Part shown: positions 3,274 through 46,659 of the stretch, piece by piece
Layout: every line of letters starts with the position of its first letter
How positions within the stretch are numbered: the first letter of the stretch is position 1
Assembly: GCA_001792345.1 (NCBI GenBank)
Contig: MGGJ01000001.1
Span: 292,688-356,687, forward strand
Length of the DNA stretch: 64,000 bases
Reading direction: 5' to 3'
From: Candidatus Woesebacteria bacterium RIFCSPHIGHO2_01_FULL_39_32
GTDB taxonomy: Bacteria > Patescibacteriota > Microgenomatia > UBA8517
Made by a program: the position numbers and the translations under genes
The notes under the pieces: model-generated
The model's input: only the letters and a program-made list of their open reading frames with translations
Told to the model about the DNA's origin: nothing
Databases searched by the model: none

Positions 3274-3394
3274 TGGCGTATTTTACTCCCTTTATCTCCA
3301 AAAAGCATTTAGGATTGGTTGTCCTTCGACTTCGCTCAGGATAAATAAATGGTGGGTTGTAAGTTGCAGGGTGTGGGAAATTGAAAGGAAGTAG

Positions 3395-14497: not shown

Positions 14498-14607
14498 AAA
14501 AATCCCCCTTCAAATTATGATGGGGGTTACTTTCTCCCTTTTTCAGAATATCCTCTATTTATAAGTATTTGTCAACAGCCCAAATTTATTTTAAACTTGG
14601 GGTTATT

Positions 14608-15156
14608 ATGAAAAAGCTTTATTTTGCAACTACGAATGAGGGAAAGTTAAAAGAGGCGAAATCCATACTTAAGGTTGAAGTTGTCGGAACGCCTTTAGAG
14701 ATAGATGAAGTTCAATCCATGGACCCGATAGAGGTTGCTACAAAAAAAGCCCGTTTATACTTCGAAAAATTAAGAAAACCAATATTTGTAGAGGATGTAT
14801 CGGTTTTCATTAAGGCATTAAACGGTTTACCGGGTCCTTATATTGACGCATTTATGAAAACTTTGGGAAATGAGGGAATTGTTAAGTTATTGCGGGGTGC
14901 TAATGAAAGAAGTGTAACTGCCCAGGCAACAGTTGTTTATATTCCGAAAATGGGAGTTGAAGAAGTTTTTATAGGAGAAGTCGAAGGTACAATTTCAGAT
15001 AAACCAAGAGGCGAAGGGTTTGGCTGGGACCCAATATTTATTCCTAAAGGAGAAAAGAAAACTTTTGGGGAAATTACTTTGGAAGAAAAAAATAAATATT
15101 CAATGCGCGCAAAAGCATTGAAGAAATTTAAAAAATGGCTTGAGAAAGAAATGTAA
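14608..15156 (+). CDS. rdgB: non-canonical purine NTP pyrophosphatase (RdgB/HAM1 ITPase)
   Basis: LYFATTNEGKLKEA..., FVEDVSVF and GLPGPY motifs; start trimmed to the Met at 14608. Confidence 0.9.
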   Translation: MKKLYFATTNEGKLKEAKSILKVEVVGTPLEIDEVQSMDPIEVATKKARLYFEKLRKPIFVEDVSVFIKALNGLPGPYIDAFMKTLGNEGIVKLLRGANERSVTAQATVVYIPKMGVEEVFIGEVEGTISDKPRGEGFGWDPIFIPKGEKKTFGEITLEEKNKYSMRAKALKKFKKWLEKEM

Positions 15157-15198
15157 ATGTGAACGTTTTTGAACAAATTCGAATGTATTTCAAAGGTA

Positions 15199-15299
15199 GC
15201 GGCGGCTGACCGCACCAGCCGCCGCACTATCTGTACGCTCGACCTGCGGTCTCGCTTATTTTCAGCGCGCGCGACTTGCTATCTCGTCCTTCGGACGAG
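15199..15299. other. GC-rich structured element (candidate ncRNA or cis-regulatory RNA): 10-bp perfect hairpin GCGGCGGCTG-accgcac-CAGCCGCCGC (15199-15225) and a UUCG-tetraloop hairpin CTCGTCC-ttcg-GGACGAG (15283-15299)
   Basis: Read directly from the sequence; local GC far above the roughly 35% background; no U-tract follows on either strand, so it is not a canonical terminator. Confidence 0.3.
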
Positions 15300-15343
15300 A
15301 AAGGATAAGTACAAAATACATGATTTTATAATACAATACAAAT

Positions 15344-16372
15344 ATGGGTGAATTTTCCGAACAAATTATACACGAGGCCAATAGACTGGCTATCGAAGAT
15401 CCTCGCAGAAATTTGGGAATTGCACTGGGCGATTTAATTGGAACTGAATCACCAACGAGGGATACAATGTTGGACGTTTTAGCATCAAGACAGCAATTTA
15501 CCCCAGAACATTTGCCCCCCCTACTTTTCTCCTCGTTACAATACTTGGCGTTAAAAGACCATGCTGATATTTCCGGTTTCGCGACAATGAATCCTGAACA
15601 GTGGAAAAAATACATTGAAGGAACTGTAAATACACATAGGCTTGATTTAACAAAATTACTTAAAGAACGAAATGTTCAATCATTTATTCTTAGGCGTTAT
15701 TTTCCGGCAAAACTACTTGCTAGGGTGGCCTATGGCGACTCGACAGTGTCCATGTTAGATATAGGTTCTTCATTAAATCTTGGCTTGGCGGCAGTTGCTG
15801 GAGACAACTCAGGAGAAATGTTTAATGGTATTGAATTAAATGGAGTGCCAAAAAATTTATATAGTGGTAGAGTAAATTTGGCAAGTGGAATAGGAGTGGA
15901 CTTATTTGAACCAGACAAAGAATGGGTGAAAGCATGTATATGGCCTGGCCATGAAGATGAGAGAGATACAATAGAACGTGCTAGCGCATCATTGAGGGAT
16001 AGGACGCCTCAGTTATCTTTTAGAAAACTTGACGCGCTGAAGATGGGTGAAGTACCAGATTTACAAGATAGATTTGATATTGCAGTCGCAAGTGGAATGA
16101 TATATCAACTTCAGCCTGACCTAAAAGACAAATTTTTAGATGCCGTGCGTAAAGTAACAAAAAGAAAAGGTTTTCTTTTGGTAAATGATTATCCTCCCGA
16201 CGTAAACGCCAAGGATTCCTTCACATACTCTACAGAGGTTTTTCCGATTGTCGATGGATCAATTCAAACACCGCTAAAAATACTGAAAGCTGAAAGTCCA
16301 TTTTATAGAAAAATTAAATTGGGAGCAGACTTTCAGCAATTTGTTGATAGCCATACAAAAAAAGCTCTTTAA
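15344..16372 (+). CDS. hypothetical protein, weakly SAM-methyltransferase-like, with GC content above its neighbours
   Basis: VSMLDIGSSLNLGLAAVAG (motif-I-like) and FDIAVASGMIYQL / GFLLVNDY; flanked by GC-rich hairpins and a tRNA. Confidence 0.5.
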   Translation: MGEFSEQIIHEANRLAIEDPRRNLGIALGDLIGTESPTRDTMLDVLASRQQFTPEHLPPLLFSSLQYLALKDHADISGFATMNPEQWKKYIEGTVNTHRLDLTKLLKERNVQSFILRRYFPAKLLARVAYGDSTVSMLDIGSSLNLGLAAVAGDNSGEMFNGIELNGVPKNLYSGRVNLASGIGVDLFEPDKEWVKACIWPGHEDERDTIERASASLRDRTPQLSFRKLDALKMGEVPDLQDRFDIAVASGMIYQLQPDLKDKFLDAVRKVTKRKGFLLVNDYPPDVNAKDSFTYSTEVFPIVDGSIQTPLKILKAESPFYRKIKLGADFQQFVDSHTKKAL

Positions 16373-16501
16373 AATTTTTGCGTTTTTCTTCATTCTTTTT
16401 ATTACGGCAACTCTCGGCGAATTTGAATTATGCCTTTGCAGCGCTGTCTGCGGAGGGGGGCGCAGCCAGCGCTGCTCCCACTTCCGACTCGATTTCCTTT
16501 T

Positions 16502-16577
16502 TGGTGACCGCTGAAGGATTCGAACCTTCGACCTCTTCGATGTGAACGAAGCGCTCTTCCGGCTGAGCTAAGCGGTC
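16502..16577 (-). tRNA. tRNA-Val (anticodon CAC), CCA encoded
   Basis: Manual fold of GACCGCTTAGCTCAGCCGGAAGAGCGCTTCGTTCACATCGAAGAGGTCGAAGGTTCGAATCCTTCAGCGGTCACCA: 7-bp acceptor, D-arm, anticodon loop TTCACAT, T-loop TTCGAAT. Confidence 0.9.
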
Positions 16578-16601: not shown

Positions 16602-17528
16602 CTAAATCAAAATTCTTTGCGAGAAATAGTATGCGAGATTTGTATCGGGGCTAAAACCTTCTCTGTAATGTCTCTCAATTCCTCTTCTTTCCATTTCTTC
16701 ATAAATTTTCGGAATTGCTGCGTTACCACTTTTGTATCCCAGCCAAACATCATCAGGATCAAATACTGCTGTGGCCAGGCGATTATTTCTTGCATACAAA
16801 CTGGGTGATATTAAAATTCCATCATAATTTATATTAGGAGGTTTTCTGCTAAGGTTCACCGATATCTTGAGAGAATCGGGAGCAATAAGTTTAGCGATGT
16901 TGAAAGGTAGGTCGTTAACTCTTATAAATCCGCCATCTACTAAGGGATAATATTCTTTAATAATTGGGTAGCTGATAAAAAACGGAACACTACAAGAAGC
17001 TTGAACGGCTTTTCCTATTAAATCCGAACTTTCCTCCCAGAATATTCTTGCACTCTTTCTTAACCTAGATATCTGGGTAGTTACTATGAGGCAAGGCGTG
17101 TATTTAGTGGGATCTTTCAAATCATTTTGGTGGGAGTTTATGTATCCAGATAACCTGTCGAAGCATACAAATCCGCCATTTTTTAAAAATGTTAGTTGAC
17201 TTATTTGGTTCCAACTCATTCTTTCAGCTAAGTATTTTGTTTTGAGTAACTCCGACAATGATCCTACCTTGGATGCGATAGCACCAACCGCGCCAGCACT
17301 TGTTCCAACTGCCATATCCAAAGGAACTCCCGCTTCAAGTAATGCTGCTATTACTCCGATATGTTGAGGGGATTTAGCTCCACCGCCTCCCAGAACAATA
17401 ACTAGAGCTTGGTCACCTTTATCTATTACATCCCTAATTCTTTTTGGTATAGACTCTGGATTATTATTTTTTATTGATTCGAATTCGGAGAGTAATATGC
17501 TTGAAGAGATAGATTTTCTTTCAGGCAT
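16602..17528 (-). CDS. patatin-like phospholipase
   Basis: GGGGAKSPQHIGV (oxyanion GGGxK/R), GTSAGA (GxSxG nucleophile), DGG. Confidence 0.85.
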   Translation of the reverse strand: MPERKSISSSILLSEFESIKNNNPESIPKRIRDVIDKGDQALVIVLGGGGAKSPQHIGVIAALLEAGVPLDMAVGTSAGAVGAIASKVGSLSELLKTKYLAERMSWNQISQLTFLKNGGFVCFDRLSGYINSHQNDLKDPTKYTPCLIVTTQISRLRKSARIFWEESSDLIGKAVQASCSVPFFISYPIIKEYYPLVDGGFIRVNDLPFNIAKLIAPDSLKISVNLSRKPPNINYDGILISPSLYARNNRLATAVFDPDDVWLGYKSGNAAIPKIYEEMERRGIERHYREGFSPDTNLAYYFSQRILI

Positions 17529-39773: not shown

Positions 39774-40088
39774 TCATTTAAACTCATTTAAACACTCCCG
39801 TTTTACGGTCTCGTAGGAAAAGTCGTTATTATTGATACTATACCTTTTACCTAATATGTCACTTGAATTGGCTGCAACTTCACTACAACTTGTTTCAACA
39901 AGCATTGGTCTATACCGAACAAATACTGCCCAGCCGATTAATGAAGCAACAGCCAGGACTAAAAGAAGATACAGTTTACTTTTGTGTTCTGGCGTGTACA
40001 TATTCTTTGAGTGGGATACGGGAGTCCCTTCGATTTCACTCAGGGTAAAATTCTCCTCCTGTATCTCGTTGTGTTTCGTCAGTCTCAC
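39774..40088 (-). CDS. small membrane protein
   Basis: 104-aa ORF with one TM helix. Confidence 0.4.
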   Translation of the reverse strand: MRLTKHNEIQEENFTLSEIEGTPVSHSKNMYTPEHKSKLYLLLVLAVASLIGWAVFVRYRPMLVETSCSEVAANSSDILGKRYSINNNDFSYETVKRECLNEFK

Positions 40089-40113
40089 GCGAATGCTGAG
40101 CCTGTCGAACCAG

Positions 40114-40184
40114 AGCGGGATACGGGAGTCGAACCCGTCTTCCTACCTTGGGAAGGTAGTGTTGAACCGCTCAACTAATCCCGC
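40114..40184 (-). tRNA. tRNA-Gly (anticodon CCC)
   Basis: GCGGGATTAGTTGAGCGGTTCAACACTACCTTCCCAAGGTAGGAAGACGGGTTCGACTCCCGTATCCCGCT: 7-bp acceptor, anticodon loop TTCCCAA, T-loop TTCGACT. Confidence 0.85.
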
Positions 40185-42244: not shown

Positions 42245-42386
42245 AAGCTGATTATATCAACGAATAGCGCCTTTTTCTTATCACTCAAAACTGAATCCCA
42301 ACACCGGGTGTTAATTACGTTCAAACAATGGGTTATTATTTAAGATTTTTTAAGAATTCAATTTTTTGCGGGTATTACCTCGCCGA

Positions 42387-42434
42387 CGCTTCAAGTAGCT
42401 GCGAAGTTGTCTTCGCTAAAGCTACGACGAAGCG
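42387..42434. other. compact GC-rich nested stem-loop: CGCTTC-aa-GTAGC-t-[GCGAAG-ttgt-CTTCGC]-taaa-GCTAC-gac-GAAGCG
   Basis: Read directly from the sequence; sits in a 254-bp intergenic region between two minus-strand genes; no U-tract on either strand. Confidence 0.3.
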
Positions 42435-42498
42435 AGGGCGGCTCTAGTGAACTATCTCCGGAACATTTATTTCAAATATCCAATTAAACACGAAGAGA

Positions 42499-42852
42499 TT
42501 AATCTAAGTCCACATCGGGAGCTTCGTAAATTTTCGGAGTAGAGCCGAGAGTTCTCTCTAAAACTATTAAATTTTCTCCAGATTCAATCACGCTTTTCGG
42601 ACCATCAACTTGGAGAGTGCCCCAAAGCTGATCACCTACAGATGCTGCCTCTAATAAAAATTCGCTCAAGCGAGGAACAATACCTTTACCGCTCCTTGGA
42701 AATGCGTATACAGTATACCTTGCACCACTCCCGTCAGCTTTTTCAACAAATGCACTATCAATTTCATCAGGACAGTATTTTGCGTCAAACAACTTCAGTC
42801 TTTCTTGTAAAGGAAGTTCGCTGTTTCTGATGTCCAACCGTTCATTTGCCAT
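42499..42852 (-). CDS. hypothetical protein
   Basis: ORF trimmed to the Met in MANERLDIR...; no recognisable motif. Confidence 0.45.
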   Translation of the reverse strand: MANERLDIRNSELPLQERLKLFDAKYCPDEIDSAFVEKADGSGARYTVYAFPRSGKGIVPRLSEFLLEAASVGDQLWGTLQVDGPKSVIESGENLIVLERTLGSTPKIYEAPDVDLD

Positions 42853-42910
42853 GTTGGTATTATAACTATAAGACAAATAAAAGTAAATCAATGAGCAAAC
42901 TTGCAGCTAA

Positions 42911-42930
42911 TTTGCGGGGCTGAAGGGACT
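42911..42930. repeat. 20-bp exact duplicate of the tRNA-Asp 3' end (TTTGCGGGGCTGAAGGGACT; second copy at 43012-43031 inside the tRNA)
   Basis: Exact direct repeat read from the sequence, 81 bp apart. Confidence 0.6.
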
Positions 42931-42970
42931 ACCATTCGACTGCGCTCAGGGTAAACTTCTCGTCCGGTCC

Positions 42971-43006
42971 ATAAAACTAAAAACCCTCACCCTTTGGTGG
43001 GGATTT
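42971..43006 (-). terminator. Rho-independent terminator downstream of tRNA-Asp
   Basis: Minus-strand hairpin AAAATCCCCACC-aaag-GGTGAGGGTTTT followed by TAGTTTTAT. Confidence 0.5.
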
Positions 43007-43015
43007 TCTAGTTTG

Positions 43016-43089
43016 CGGGGCTGAAGGGACTCGAACCCTCGACCTTCCGCGTGACAGGCGGACGCTCTAACCAACTGAGCTACAACCCC
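43016..43089 (-). tRNA. tRNA-Asp (anticodon GTC)
   Basis: GGGGTTGTAGCTCAGTTGGTTAGAGCGTCCGCCTGTCACGCGGAAGGTCGAGGGTTCGAGTCCCTTCAGCCCCG: anticodon loop CTGTCAC, T-loop TTCGAGT. Confidence 0.9.
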
Positions 43090-45705: not shown

Positions 45706-46659
45706 ATGCAGAATATTTACGAAGCTGTCGCTTCTAACAAGAGGAAAAGCGCTCTTATACTAATTGTCTTTTTACTGTTTACGACGGTAGTTATATATGT
45801 TTTGGCCCAAGCTTTTGCCGTTTATATGGGTTATGAACCCGGAGGGCTTGGGTTTGTAGGTATTGCACTAATTTTTTCGGGTTTAGTAAGTTTTTCTAGC
45901 TATTGGTATTCCGACAAAATAGTTCTGGCGATTTCATCAGCACGTCCGGCAGACAGAAAGAAAGAGTTTGACTTTTATACTGTAGCTGAGAATTTGGCAA
46001 TTGGAACTGGTTTACTAAAACCAAAACTTTATGTAATTGAAGATACTGCTCCAAATGCTTTTGCGACTGGTCGCGATCCCGAACACGCCGTTATCTGTGC
46101 TACCACAGGATTACTTCAAAAGTTAAGTAGAACTGAACTTGAGGGAGTGATTGCACACGAACTTTCTCACATTAGAAACTATGACATACGGCTAATGAGT
46201 ATTGTTGCTGTTTTGGTTGGGACTGTTGCTTTGATGGCTGATTGGTTTTTGAGAATAAGCTTCCGAGGAGGTAGAAGGGATGATAGGGATAAAAGTCAAT
46301 TGGCGGCTTTATTTTTGCTTCTAGGTTTGATATTTGCGATTTTGTCACCGTTGATAGCTCAACTAATTCAACTTGCAATATCTCGAAGACGAGAATTTAC
46401 TGCGGATGCGTCAGCTGTGGGAATTACTCGTCAACCCTCCGGGTTGATAACAGCGTTAGAAAAAATCGCAACGGATCATGAGCCCCTTGAAGCAGCCAAC
46501 AAAGCAACAGCACACCTTTATATTATTAATCCATTTAAGTTTGACTCAAAAAGGGCTTACCCTGAGCGAAGTCGAAGGGCAGTTAACTGGTTCTCGGGTT
46601 TATTCAATACTCACCCACCTGTAGAAGAAAGAATTAAAGTTCTCCAAAGTATGGTTTGA
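45706..46659 (+). CDS. htpX: M48-family zinc metalloprotease HtpX-like
   Basis: HELSHIRNYD (HExxH), four TM segments, C-terminal ...E..AD motif. Confidence 0.85.
   Translation: MQNIYEAVASNKRKSALILIVFLLFTTVVIYVLAQAFAVYMGYEPGGLGFVGIALIFSGLVSFSSYWYSDKIVLAISSARPADRKKEFDFYTVAENLAIGTGLLKPKLYVIEDTAPNAFATGRDPEHAVICATTGLLQKLSRTELEGVIAHELSHIRNYDIRLMSIVAVLVGTVALMADWFLRISFRGGRRDDRDKSQLAALFLLLGLIFAILSPLIAQLIQLAISRRREFTADASAVGITRQPSGLITALEKIATDHEPLEAANKATAHLYIINPFKFDSKRAYPERSRRAVNWFSGLFNTHPPVEERIKVLQSMV

Follow-up and report, generated by a model that had tools for sequence, protein, structure and literature searches.

A GC-rich hairpin cluster as the putative far-end module of a tRNA-linked mobile cassette in a Woesebacteria genome

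The hairpin cluster in the ITPase-DUF2332 spacer

The stretch analyzed here (hereafter the window; 64,000 nt of contig MGGJ01000001.1 from Candidatus Woesebacteria bacterium RIFCSPHIGHO2_01_FULL_39_32, positions 292,688 to 356,687) contains a cluster of GC-rich hairpins in the 187-nt spacer between a Ham1/ITPase gene (14599-15156) and a DUF2332 gene (15344-16372, plus strand); a tRNA-Val(cac) gene lies beyond on the minus strand (16502-16577; found with ARAGORN and Rfam). Comparison with related loci suggests that the cluster (15159-15300), a conserved and non-coding module, forms the far end of a cargo-only mobile cassette of 1.34 kb (15159-16501), a reading to which we assign a probability of about 0.7 (0.7 to 0.85 when it is put simply as the end of a mobile cassette). 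Roles for the individual hairpins are proposed with much less confidence.

The 100 nt from 15200 to 15299 were 64% GC (36.4% in the whole window), and the maximum of the spacer in 80-nt windows (0.66) was the top value in all 64 kb (mean, 0.364; standard deviation, 0.068), in agreement with the strong GC enrichment reported in the initial annotation. The spacer as a whole was more stable than its shuffles on both strands (z-scores, -3.4 and -3.3). Its outermost part, B1 (15159-15198, plus strand; pairwise diversity in the family described below, 0.049), is an AT-rich arm with a sharp outer insertion boundary at 15159 (GTGAACG), where the conserved unit begins; with these 40 nt of AT-rich sequence, the unit is larger than the element as initially delimited. 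After a conserved GGTAG comes HP1 (15199-15225, plus strand), for which the perfect 10-bp GC stem reported earlier was found (GCGGCGGCTG at 15199-15208 and CAGCCGCCGC at 15216-15225; 7-nt loop; -23.0 kcal/mol; z, -6.1 against shuffles). A linker (ACTATCTGTAC, 15226-15236, plus strand), variable in the family (diversity, 0.21) and changed at five of eight positions in locus L009 (see below), leads to HP2 (15237-15255, plus strand; GCTCGACC-TGC-GGTCTCGC), a weak hairpin (-5.9 kcal/mol; z, -0.45) with loop letters that vary across the family. The minimum free energy fold of the minus strand, which pairs this variable linker, was rejected. Core C (15256-15275, plus strand) consists of TTATTTT (15256-15262) and then the palindromic (GC)n run CAGCGCGCGCGAC (15263-15275). 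The latter had been recognized from the start; the accompanying statement that neither strand carries a U-tract does not hold, since TTATTTT directly follows HP2, a weak fourth hairpin that had been overlooked. HP3 (15282-15300, plus strand), a few nucleotides past core C, is a cassette-specific hairpin that reads CTCGTCC-TTC-GGACGAG (15283-15299), a stem of 7 bp, or of 8 bp when T15282/A15300 is counted (-13.7 kcal/mol; z, -4.1). It had been described as a UUCG-tetraloop hairpin; the hairpin stands, and the loop is the 3-nt TTC, the earlier transcription of the sequence having had one G extra. The AT-rich spacer that follows (15301-15343, plus strand) has a TATAAT box (15327-15332) 11 nt before the ATG and is without a Shine-Dalgarno sequence.

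The downstream gene had been called GC-elevated; the DUF2332 gene is 38.9% GC (third codon positions, 0.289), a composition close to that of its neighbours (36-38.8%; third codon positions, 0.29-0.30). The Rfam covariance-model search proposed for both strands returned no family at or above the gathering threshold: with Rfam 15, only 4 tRNAs were found in the whole window, the best scores over 15050-15450 at E<=10 were 15-20 bits (thresholds, 44-70), and a full array from a related locus (L088, 1200-4450; E<=0.1) gave tRNA only. A further intergenic GC island was seen at 42365-42462, downstream of the minus-strand open reading frame (ORF) 42499-42891 (up to 57.5% GC; long imperfect hairpin, ..CTCGCTTCGTCGTAGCTTTAGCGAAGACAACTTCGCAGCTACTTGAAGCGTCGGCGAGG..; no Rfam match).

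Conservation and covariation of the module

Species-representative genomes were searched with an exact 20-mer from core C (TTATTTTCAGCGCGCGCGAC), and 17 stretches were matched. Sixteen were low-GC contigs of the Microgenomates/Patescibacteria type (Woese-, Roizman-, Gottesman- and Amesbacteria, WWE3, and two apparently mis-binned contigs); the other, L028 (Rhizobiaceae), was rejected as a chance 20-mer match, none of the other modules being present there. A 26-mer of B1 matched 74 metagenome stretches. Sixty complete module copies (43 unique) were extracted, and 40 were aligned (A1). The module of about 145 nt (B1-HP1-HP2-core C-HP3) is more than 90% identical across about 90 loci, and the copies share the order B1, HP1, variable linker, HP2, core C, T-run, and a hairpin of variable sequence (HP3); the consensus of B1 is GTGAACGTTTT(T/C)GAACAAATTCGAACGTATTTCAAAGGTAG. 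The flanks to the left of B1 are unrelated between loci, and the homology of the window with L009 and about 90 other loci starts exactly at GTGAACG. The window itself holds a single copy (nhmmer E-value, 3.7e-47; next match, 0.58).

The closest relative of the DUF2332 protein (87% amino acid identity) is encoded in L009/L022 (Microgenomates Gr01-1014_16), where the gene upstream of the module differs from the ITPase gene of the window. The spacers of L009 and the window agree at 170 of 187 positions (91%) without indels; the third codon positions of the two DUF2332 genes agree at 70.6%. One change in HP2 is compensatory (A15242/T15250 to G/C in L009), and two one-sided changes are compatible with G·U pairing on the plus strand only. 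No such element was found at two more distant DUF2332 homologues (60-63% amino acid identity). Thus, the spacer is constrained, and it is not an obligatory partner of the DUF2332 gene.

Pairwise diversity was 0.024 in HP1, 0.02 in core C, and 0.44 in HP3 (about 0.35 at synonymous/third-codon sites of the recombinase gene described below). In 53 of the 64 unique copies, HP3 formed a stem of 5 bp or more in the 34 nt that follow C; there were 43 distinct arms, mostly with 3-nt loops, and the mean free energy was -10.5 kcal/mol (-3.3 kcal/mol for shuffles). In the 40 family members, all six aligned pairs of HP3 and two of six pairs of HP2 covaried, none of 500 shuffles reached the observed scores, and slid controls were lower; the compensatory changes that the initial annotation had proposed to look for are therefore present, in HP3 and in HP2. 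In HP1, none of 13 pairs covaried among the 40 main-family copies, and the variants break the pairing; in sub-families the GC hairpin is kept with other stems or with a 20-nt loop expansion, covariation being seen only between sub-families. About half of the copies have a 1-nt indel in the HP1 loop. Judging from these alignments, HP3 is constrained in structure only, not in sequence; the constraint on HP1 and core C, in sequence as well as in structure, suggests a site recognised by protein. Note that HP1 was not a retrieval pattern, so that its conservation is not an effect of ascertainment.

The strand on which the pairing acts was examined with the 64 HP3 copies, and no preference for G·U over A·C was found (17 on the plus strand, 12 on the minus strand; Wilcoxon test on free-energy differences, p = 0.48); UG and CA counts were also equal in the module alignment. 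Without this asymmetry, the pairing could equally act in DNA. The structured element proposed earlier is upheld as conserved secondary structure; selection at the RNA level, in the form of a strand-specific G·U signal, is not.

The two B copies within one locus are 97.6% identical (92.9% between loci), which indicates concerted evolution. HP3 travels with the cassette: it is always GCGCCTG(C/T)AAGGCGC in the recombinase unit, and each cargo type has its own version. A diverged sub-family was also recognized (L102, 100-1400, minus strand; also L017 and L019), with a module B containing ..GGTAGACACGGCGAGTGGCCGGCTGCACTCGCCGCGCC.. and an extra hairpin, and with TTATTTTTTGCGCGCGCGAT as core C. In L102, the GT2 cassette of this sub-family stands in tandem with a main-family cassette, so that arrays can hold more than one cargo slot.

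Cassette architecture, tRNA targets and recombinase

In every case the module closed an islet on the side away from a tRNA-Val, -Glu or -Lys gene, the opposite end being module A directly at the 3' end of that tRNA gene, and it was always oriented toward a cargo gene that differs between loci. Modules A, B, C, D and E and the hairpins were mapped over all loci. In more than 17 loci, and in both orientations, the full order is the tRNA; A, D, hairpin, C, HP, the recombinase gene on the opposite strand, E and an inverted A; B, inverted D, hairpin, E, the cargo gene on the opposite strand, HP, C and B (all inverted); and the host sequence. A short form without the recombinase unit (tRNA, A, E, cargo, HP, C, B, host) is found in the window, in L023 (tRNA-Glu) and in L042 (tRNA-Lys). 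Read on the minus strand, the window has tRNA-Val (16577-16502), A (16501-16395), E (16388-16370), the antisense DUF2332 gene, and then HP3, C and B to 15159.

Upstream of core C stands B when cargo follows (44 unique cases), and D with a hairpin at the 3' end of the recombinase gene (12 unique cases, and 2 more with diverged recombinases), with a single exception each way (L020, L074). By these exchanges of partner, C and E bound a slot whose content differs between loci. In nearly all copies the module is followed by a same-strand ORF that starts 43-96 nt past C. The cargo of the window (15344-16372, plus strand; 342 amino acids) is methyltransferase-like (Pfam PF10094; E-value, 1e-9), and only 4 clusters of close relatives and three diverged relatives were found in the protein database. 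Cargo elsewhere brings the total to at least 12 unrelated families, among them APH kinases, EEP nucleases/phosphatases, GT2, Glycos_transf_3 (family-3 glycosyltransferase/phosphoribosyltransferase), MFS, ABC and EamA transporters, the nucleoside hydrolase IU_nuc_hydro, a creatininase-like amidohydrolase, a TAT-signal protein, and several unknowns. Since this cargo is functionally unrelated, a riboswitch or leader specific to one gene is excluded, and a cassette boundary is indicated. The other boundary of the replaceable slot, module E (GAAAAACGCAAAAATTTTA, 16370-16388, minus strand; 19 of 19 positions matched), has a complement (TAAAATTTTTGCGTTTTTC) that holds the stop codon of the cargo gene in the window; it overlaps or closely follows the stop, and in most cassettes it starts 0-22 nt past it. 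The tRNA-proximal arm, module A (16395-16501, minus strand), is the second GC island of the window, with a GC hairpin at 16438-16475 (-27.7 kcal/mol), and is 93% identical to the tRNA-Glu-proximal module of L025.

The TATAAT box of the window has counterparts 3-12 nt before the ATG of other cargo genes, and it is probable that the cargo is expressed from a promoter of its own, with an mRNA that is almost leaderless. The absence of a Shine-Dalgarno sequence together with a TATAAT-like box 3-12 nt before the ATG was observed for both cargo and recombinase genes (window 15301-15346 and equivalent spacers; L088 2843-2890), which suggests that the genes of the island have leaderless mRNAs; the host ITPase gene, unlike these, has a GGGG run before its start. 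A dispersed motif of about 25 nt (CCCTTCGACTTCGCTCAGGGTAA) was noticed on either strand of the window (3320-3344, 40026-40062, 42932-42968, and 46557-46583) and flanking the cassette arrays L074 and L084; it has GAAATCGAAG in common with the start of module A.

The target tRNAs of the family are Val(cac), Glu(ctc/ttc) and Lys(ctt/ttt), all of which end in ..TCAC(CA), and in the window the insertion begins at the 3' end of tRNA-Val. An empty site was found in L106, where an ITPase gene (73% identical) has its stop codon 8 nt from the 3' end of tRNA-Val(cac), and the genes beyond, ferric-reductase-like and methyltransferase, are the same ones as in the window; the window thus carries 1,343 extra bases (15159-16501) exactly between the ITPase gene and the tRNA 3' end. 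Other inserts occupy the same site in L103 (5550-8100; a 293-amino-acid ORF, a disrupted pseudo-tRNA-Val, an APH gene, and a GIY-YIG gene) and in L105 (5640-7400; an inverted tRNA-Val and a 521-amino-acid ORF without Pfam match), and no A-E modules were found in either. By this comparison of loci, the ITPase/tRNA-Val junction is a hot spot of integration. A patatin-like phospholipase gene (16602-17528, minus strand), which in the window lies 5' of tRNA-Val, is absent from the syntenic region of L103, L105 and L106 and thus represents a second lineage-specific insertion at the same tRNA.

All A modules abut either a target tRNA 3' end or a mimic of it formed by the reverse complement of B, rc(B). 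In the window, the reverse complement of B1 (..TTCGAATTTGTTCAAAAACGTTCAC) resembles the part of the target tRNAs from the T-loop to the 3' end (..GGTTCGAATCC..GGTCAC). Inside full arrays, the B1 complement (..ACGTTCGAATTTGTTC(G/A)AAAACGTTCAC) precedes A at the position where the real tRNA end (..GGTTCGA..CC..TCAC) stands proximally; the tRNA/A and rc(B)/A junctions can be aligned, and the latter is intact in these arrays. In some loci, 16-35 nt from the beginning of module A are repeated as well. We considered and rejected a tRNA-like fold of rc(B), since neither ARAGORN nor Rfam gave a match there and the presumed T-stem and acceptor were unpaired on inspection by eye. Two other tRNA genes of the window, both on the minus strand, have repeats of their 3' ends. 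At 40012-40184, tRNA-Gly(ccc) is followed by an insert of about 90 nt, which ends with TTTTACCCTGAGTGAAATCGAAGGG, and a 15-nt direct repeat of its 3' end (ACTCCCGTATCCCAC; tRNA, ACTCCCGTATCCCGC); this looks like a scar or mini-element of a second tRNA-targeting family. At 42907-43089, with the same design, tRNA-Asp(gtc) is followed by a canonical terminator, ..GTTTACCCTGAGCGCAGTCGAATGG, and a 24-nt repeat of the tRNA 3' end (AGTCCCTTCAGCCCCGCAAATTAG).

The recombinase of the family is a large serine recombinase of 509-525 residues (511 in L088; Pfam Resolvase, Recombinase and Zn_ribbon_recom), 80-86% identical across more than 17 loci, and its gene sits between two inverted A modules in full arrays. 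The nearest solved relative is the SPbeta integrase (9dxh, E-value 6e-16; also 4kis), aligned over residues 4-417; the best NCBIfam matches, CcrB and XisF, are below their cutoffs (CcrB far below). The ORF (L088 1308-2843, minus strand; L025 2162-3691, minus strand; at least 15 other loci) lacks its own stop codon and stays open across the hairpin, core C, D and A until it ends inside the antisense tRNA gene, so that the last 10-25 residues or so depend on the target tRNA. Over codons 421-450, where the hairpin HP_L and C lie within the ORF, the third-position diversity falls to 0.108, which indicates a constraint at the nucleotide level on top of coding. No recombinase was found in the 64 kb of the window, only a relic of the tail encoded in module A, whose plus strand keeps the frame of the recombinase C-terminal tail (tblastn: 75% over 48 amino acids; E-value, 4e-5).

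Interpretation and relation to known elements

The comparison of loci shows, at the level of sequence, the module order, the tRNA linkage, the empty site, the diversity of the cargo, the co-occurrence with a recombinase, and the pattern of constraint. We propose from these that the recombinase would integrate the element at tRNA 3' ends finishing in ..TTCGA..TCAC(CA) and would mobilise the platform. The outer 30 nt or so of B1, mimicking the tRNA end, may be the recombination arm on the element side, and the rc(B)/A junction its attP-like site, an arrangement that would explain the knife-sharp boundary at 15159; the excised circle would join ..CGTTCAC directly to CCAAAAAGGAAATCG. HP1 and core C may be read by a protein, possibly the recombinase itself, an accessory factor or, should a hairpin with TTATTTT serve as a terminator/insulator, RNA polymerase; in the last case the HP1-C region would shield the promoter of the cargo. 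Candidate protein-contact sequences are the GGTTCGAGCC motifs, together with HP1, C and D. HP3 would be a hairpin needed for its structure only, moving with each cassette, and the exchange of cargo would take place in the slot between C and E, through site-specific recombination or through homologous recombination of the conserved arms. The copy in the window would then be a cassette that brought in the DUF2332 gene and is non-autonomous or a fossil.

Several observations weigh against this reading. The recombinase is linked to the modules by co-occurrence, and with no recombinase in the window, the present copy can at best have been mobile in the past. For a large serine recombinase, simple sites of about 40-50 bp normally suffice, and hairpin arms of about 100 nt exceed this model. 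The distal tRNA-like repeat is a loose mimic and not an exact duplicate: the distal end ..TTCGAATTTGTTCAAAAACGTTCAC and the tRNA ..TTCGAATCCTTCAGCGGTCAC have only TTCGAAT and TCAC in common. A single attP x attB event is insufficient for the full arrays, in which the internal rc(B)/A junction is inverted and the A..A and B..B pairs are inverted too; to derive the short form from the full array, at least an inversion between the inverted A copies and a deletion between the E copies are needed, and the inverted state was not observed in about 20 arrays. The conservation of core C and B1 is partly ascertained, as both served as search patterns, unlike HP1, HP2 and the order of the modules. As for a role of the hairpins in termination, HP2 is too weak, and the tail of HP1 in the window too poor in U, for a convincing terminator.

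The rival accounts differ mainly in what they make of the hairpins. That these act mainly as an intrinsic terminator or insulator, by which host-gene transcripts (in the window, those of the ITPase gene, whose convergent tRNA neighbour was lost) are kept from running on to the cargo promoter, would be compatible with the cassette-end reading; we regard it as a possible, if rather unlikely, main function. The module always faces incoming transcription just upstream of the promoter region of the cargo, and, as in intrinsic terminators, a GC-rich hairpin precedes a T-rich run on the strand of that transcription: TTATTTT stands after HP2 and, in the tRNA-proximal module, after an interchangeable 9-11-bp hairpin (hp), and in L025 a terminator scan flags hp+TTATTTTCAG and HP1+ACTATTTGTA as terminator-like. 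However, the copy in the window was not flagged by that scan, its strongest hairpin, HP1, has a poor U-tract and the good one comes after the weak HP2, and the T-run lies 5' of HP3, not 3'; moreover, a terminator needs structure only, yet HP1 and the (GC)n run are near-invariant in sequence. Transcription of the module itself, which would then act as an element-borne RNA (a small RNA, a long structured 5' region, or an RNA cofactor of recombination), is consistent with its hairpin and U-rich tail, with the complementarity of C and E between the cargo and recombinase transcripts, with a conservation far above the needs of a simple att site, with the pairing kept under sequence change in HP3 (and in HP1 across sub-families), and with the two one-sided changes in L009. 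Against such an RNA stand the lack of a conserved upstream promoter, homology starting at B1 and B1 having no good -35/-10 (scanning and inspection by eye found only poor hexamers inside B1 or C), the equal use of G·U and A·C in HP3, the main-family variants of HP1 that break pairs rather than compensate, and the absence of an Rfam family; we consider it improbable.

The remaining accounts would make the module something other than a cassette end. The initial annotation placed it in the 5' leader of the 15344 gene, and such a cis-regulatory leader or riboswitch of the DUF2332 gene would fit its position directly upstream on the same strand and its inheritance with that gene in L009 (91% identity). 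However, genes of at least 12 unrelated families have this module before them, and it is missing before DUF2332 homologues at 60-63% identity; the TATAAT box lies between the hairpins and the ATG, so that the hairpins may sit upstream of the promoter; nothing in Rfam matches; and the module is one end of a mobile insertion. This explanation is hardly tenable. Decay of recombinase coding sequence could be suspected from the complement of core C, which encodes ..KVARAEN.. in the recombinase ORF as this runs on through HP_L, C, D and A, and from the window, where the reverse complement of C+B is open in the same frame and translates without a stop as VARAENKRDRRSSVQIVRRLVRSAAATFEIHSNLFKNVH. Coding is, however, excluded by the 1-nt indel in the HP1 loop; third positions are more conserved there than elsewhere in the recombinase gene, homology to solved recombinases ends near residue 417, before the modules, and the last residues of the tail vary with the target tRNA, all of which makes this origin very improbable. 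GTAG before a GC-rich palindrome resembles repetitive extragenic palindromic (REP) elements, and inverted B..B pairs flank the cargo; a selfish repeat of this kind, or one like a miniature inverted-repeat transposable element, unrelated to the recombinase, is nevertheless scarcely credible given the single copy in 64 kb, the fixed A/B/C/D/E grammar outside which the module never occurs, and the absence of any target-site duplication among the copies seen.

The preferred reading, a cassette end, can be set beside several known systems; the element works most like the staphylococcal SCC elements, the tycheposons and the integron cassettes discussed below. A phage origin was rejected: three scans of viral contigs with B, C and A patterns gave no matches, and in phage and plasmid collections the spacer had, by blastn, nothing beyond chance matches of 24-39 nt. 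The recombinase has the domain architecture of the phage serine integrases (SPbeta SprA/YokA, A118, phiC31), which are also its closest solved structures. The phage enzymes catalyse attP x attB integration in one direction only, with hybrid attL/attR sites as the product; unlike the phages concerned, the cassettes have no phage genes, larger conserved arms, and a mimic of the tRNA end at the distal end. The staphylococcal cassette chromosome (SCC; SCCmec and the ccr-less pseudo-SCC, with CcrA/CcrB) integrates at the 3' end of one conserved gene, carries variable cargo, and occurs as recombinase-less derivatives and as composite tandem arrays that share ends. The cassettes described here resemble it in all of these respects (a 3'-end target in a conserved host gene, variable cargo, cargo-only forms without recombinase, composite arrays with shared ends) and in having a large serine recombinase, the far-below-cutoff best match of which is CcrB. 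They differ from it in target (a tRNA 3' end; rlmH for SCC), in size (1.3-4 kb; 20-60 kb for SCC), in their arms of about 100 nt with GC hairpins (short direct repeats in SCC), and in a recombinase ORF that crosses the junction into the target gene.

Integron cassettes (attC) are alike in having one promoter-proximal ORF each, with very diverse accessory cargo, and a hairpin in each cassette, comparable to HP3, that is conserved in structure and not in sequence beside a conserved junction. In the arrays, on the other hand, the only recombinase among the annotated genes is of the serine type (not all loci were searched systematically for an IntI tyrosine recombinase), the cassette hairpin is 5' of the ORF, neither a core of the GTTRRRY type nor a pattern of extrahelical bases was noticed beside HP3, there is usually one cargo slot per array and not dozens, and long conserved arms (A, B) flank the slot. 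An integron-like platform, in which the large serine recombinase would swap single-gene cassettes in the C-E slot while docking at tRNA 3' ends, the hairpins (HP1, HP3, A) being recognised by the enzyme or a cofactor, is proposed only as an unlikely extension of the cassette-end reading.

The literature on serine-recombinase tRNA elements of Microgenomates and the candidate phyla radiation yielded no directly relevant description, and the family is apparently undescribed; the tycheposons of Prochlorococcus are a conceptual analogue. As far as they are described in the parts of the source used here, tycheposons are small cargo elements of streamlined genomes with a few specific tRNA targets; they pile up beside the tRNA, decay, and leave cargo and partial tRNAs, and 474 of 501 have a tRNA-associated tyrosine recombinase (bioRxiv 10.1101/2020.12.28.424599). 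On that description, the cassettes are similar in that they bring cargo to tRNA genes of a streamlined genome and decay where they have inserted, and differ in their smaller size, their large serine recombinase and their fixed grammar of non-coding modules; conserved hairpin modules of tycheposons are not described in those parts.

If the reading given here is true, a GC-rich hairpin island in an AT-rich genome can be the end of a mobile element instead of an RNA gene, which calls for caution; the module would serve as an annotation marker that delimits recently acquired genes of Microgenomates, and a small (511 amino acids) serine recombinase with an apparently generic tRNA-end target and defined arms may interest genome engineers. 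The genomes of bacteria of the candidate phyla radiation are tiny, and little is understood of the routes by which these bacteria acquire accessory genes. The non-coding arms are 93-98% identical in at least five class-level lineages; the cassette family would be a compact and very widespread vehicle for gene gain in these bacteria, by which transporters, kinases, nucleases and nucleoside-salvage enzymes would have been moved into tRNA-linked hot spots.

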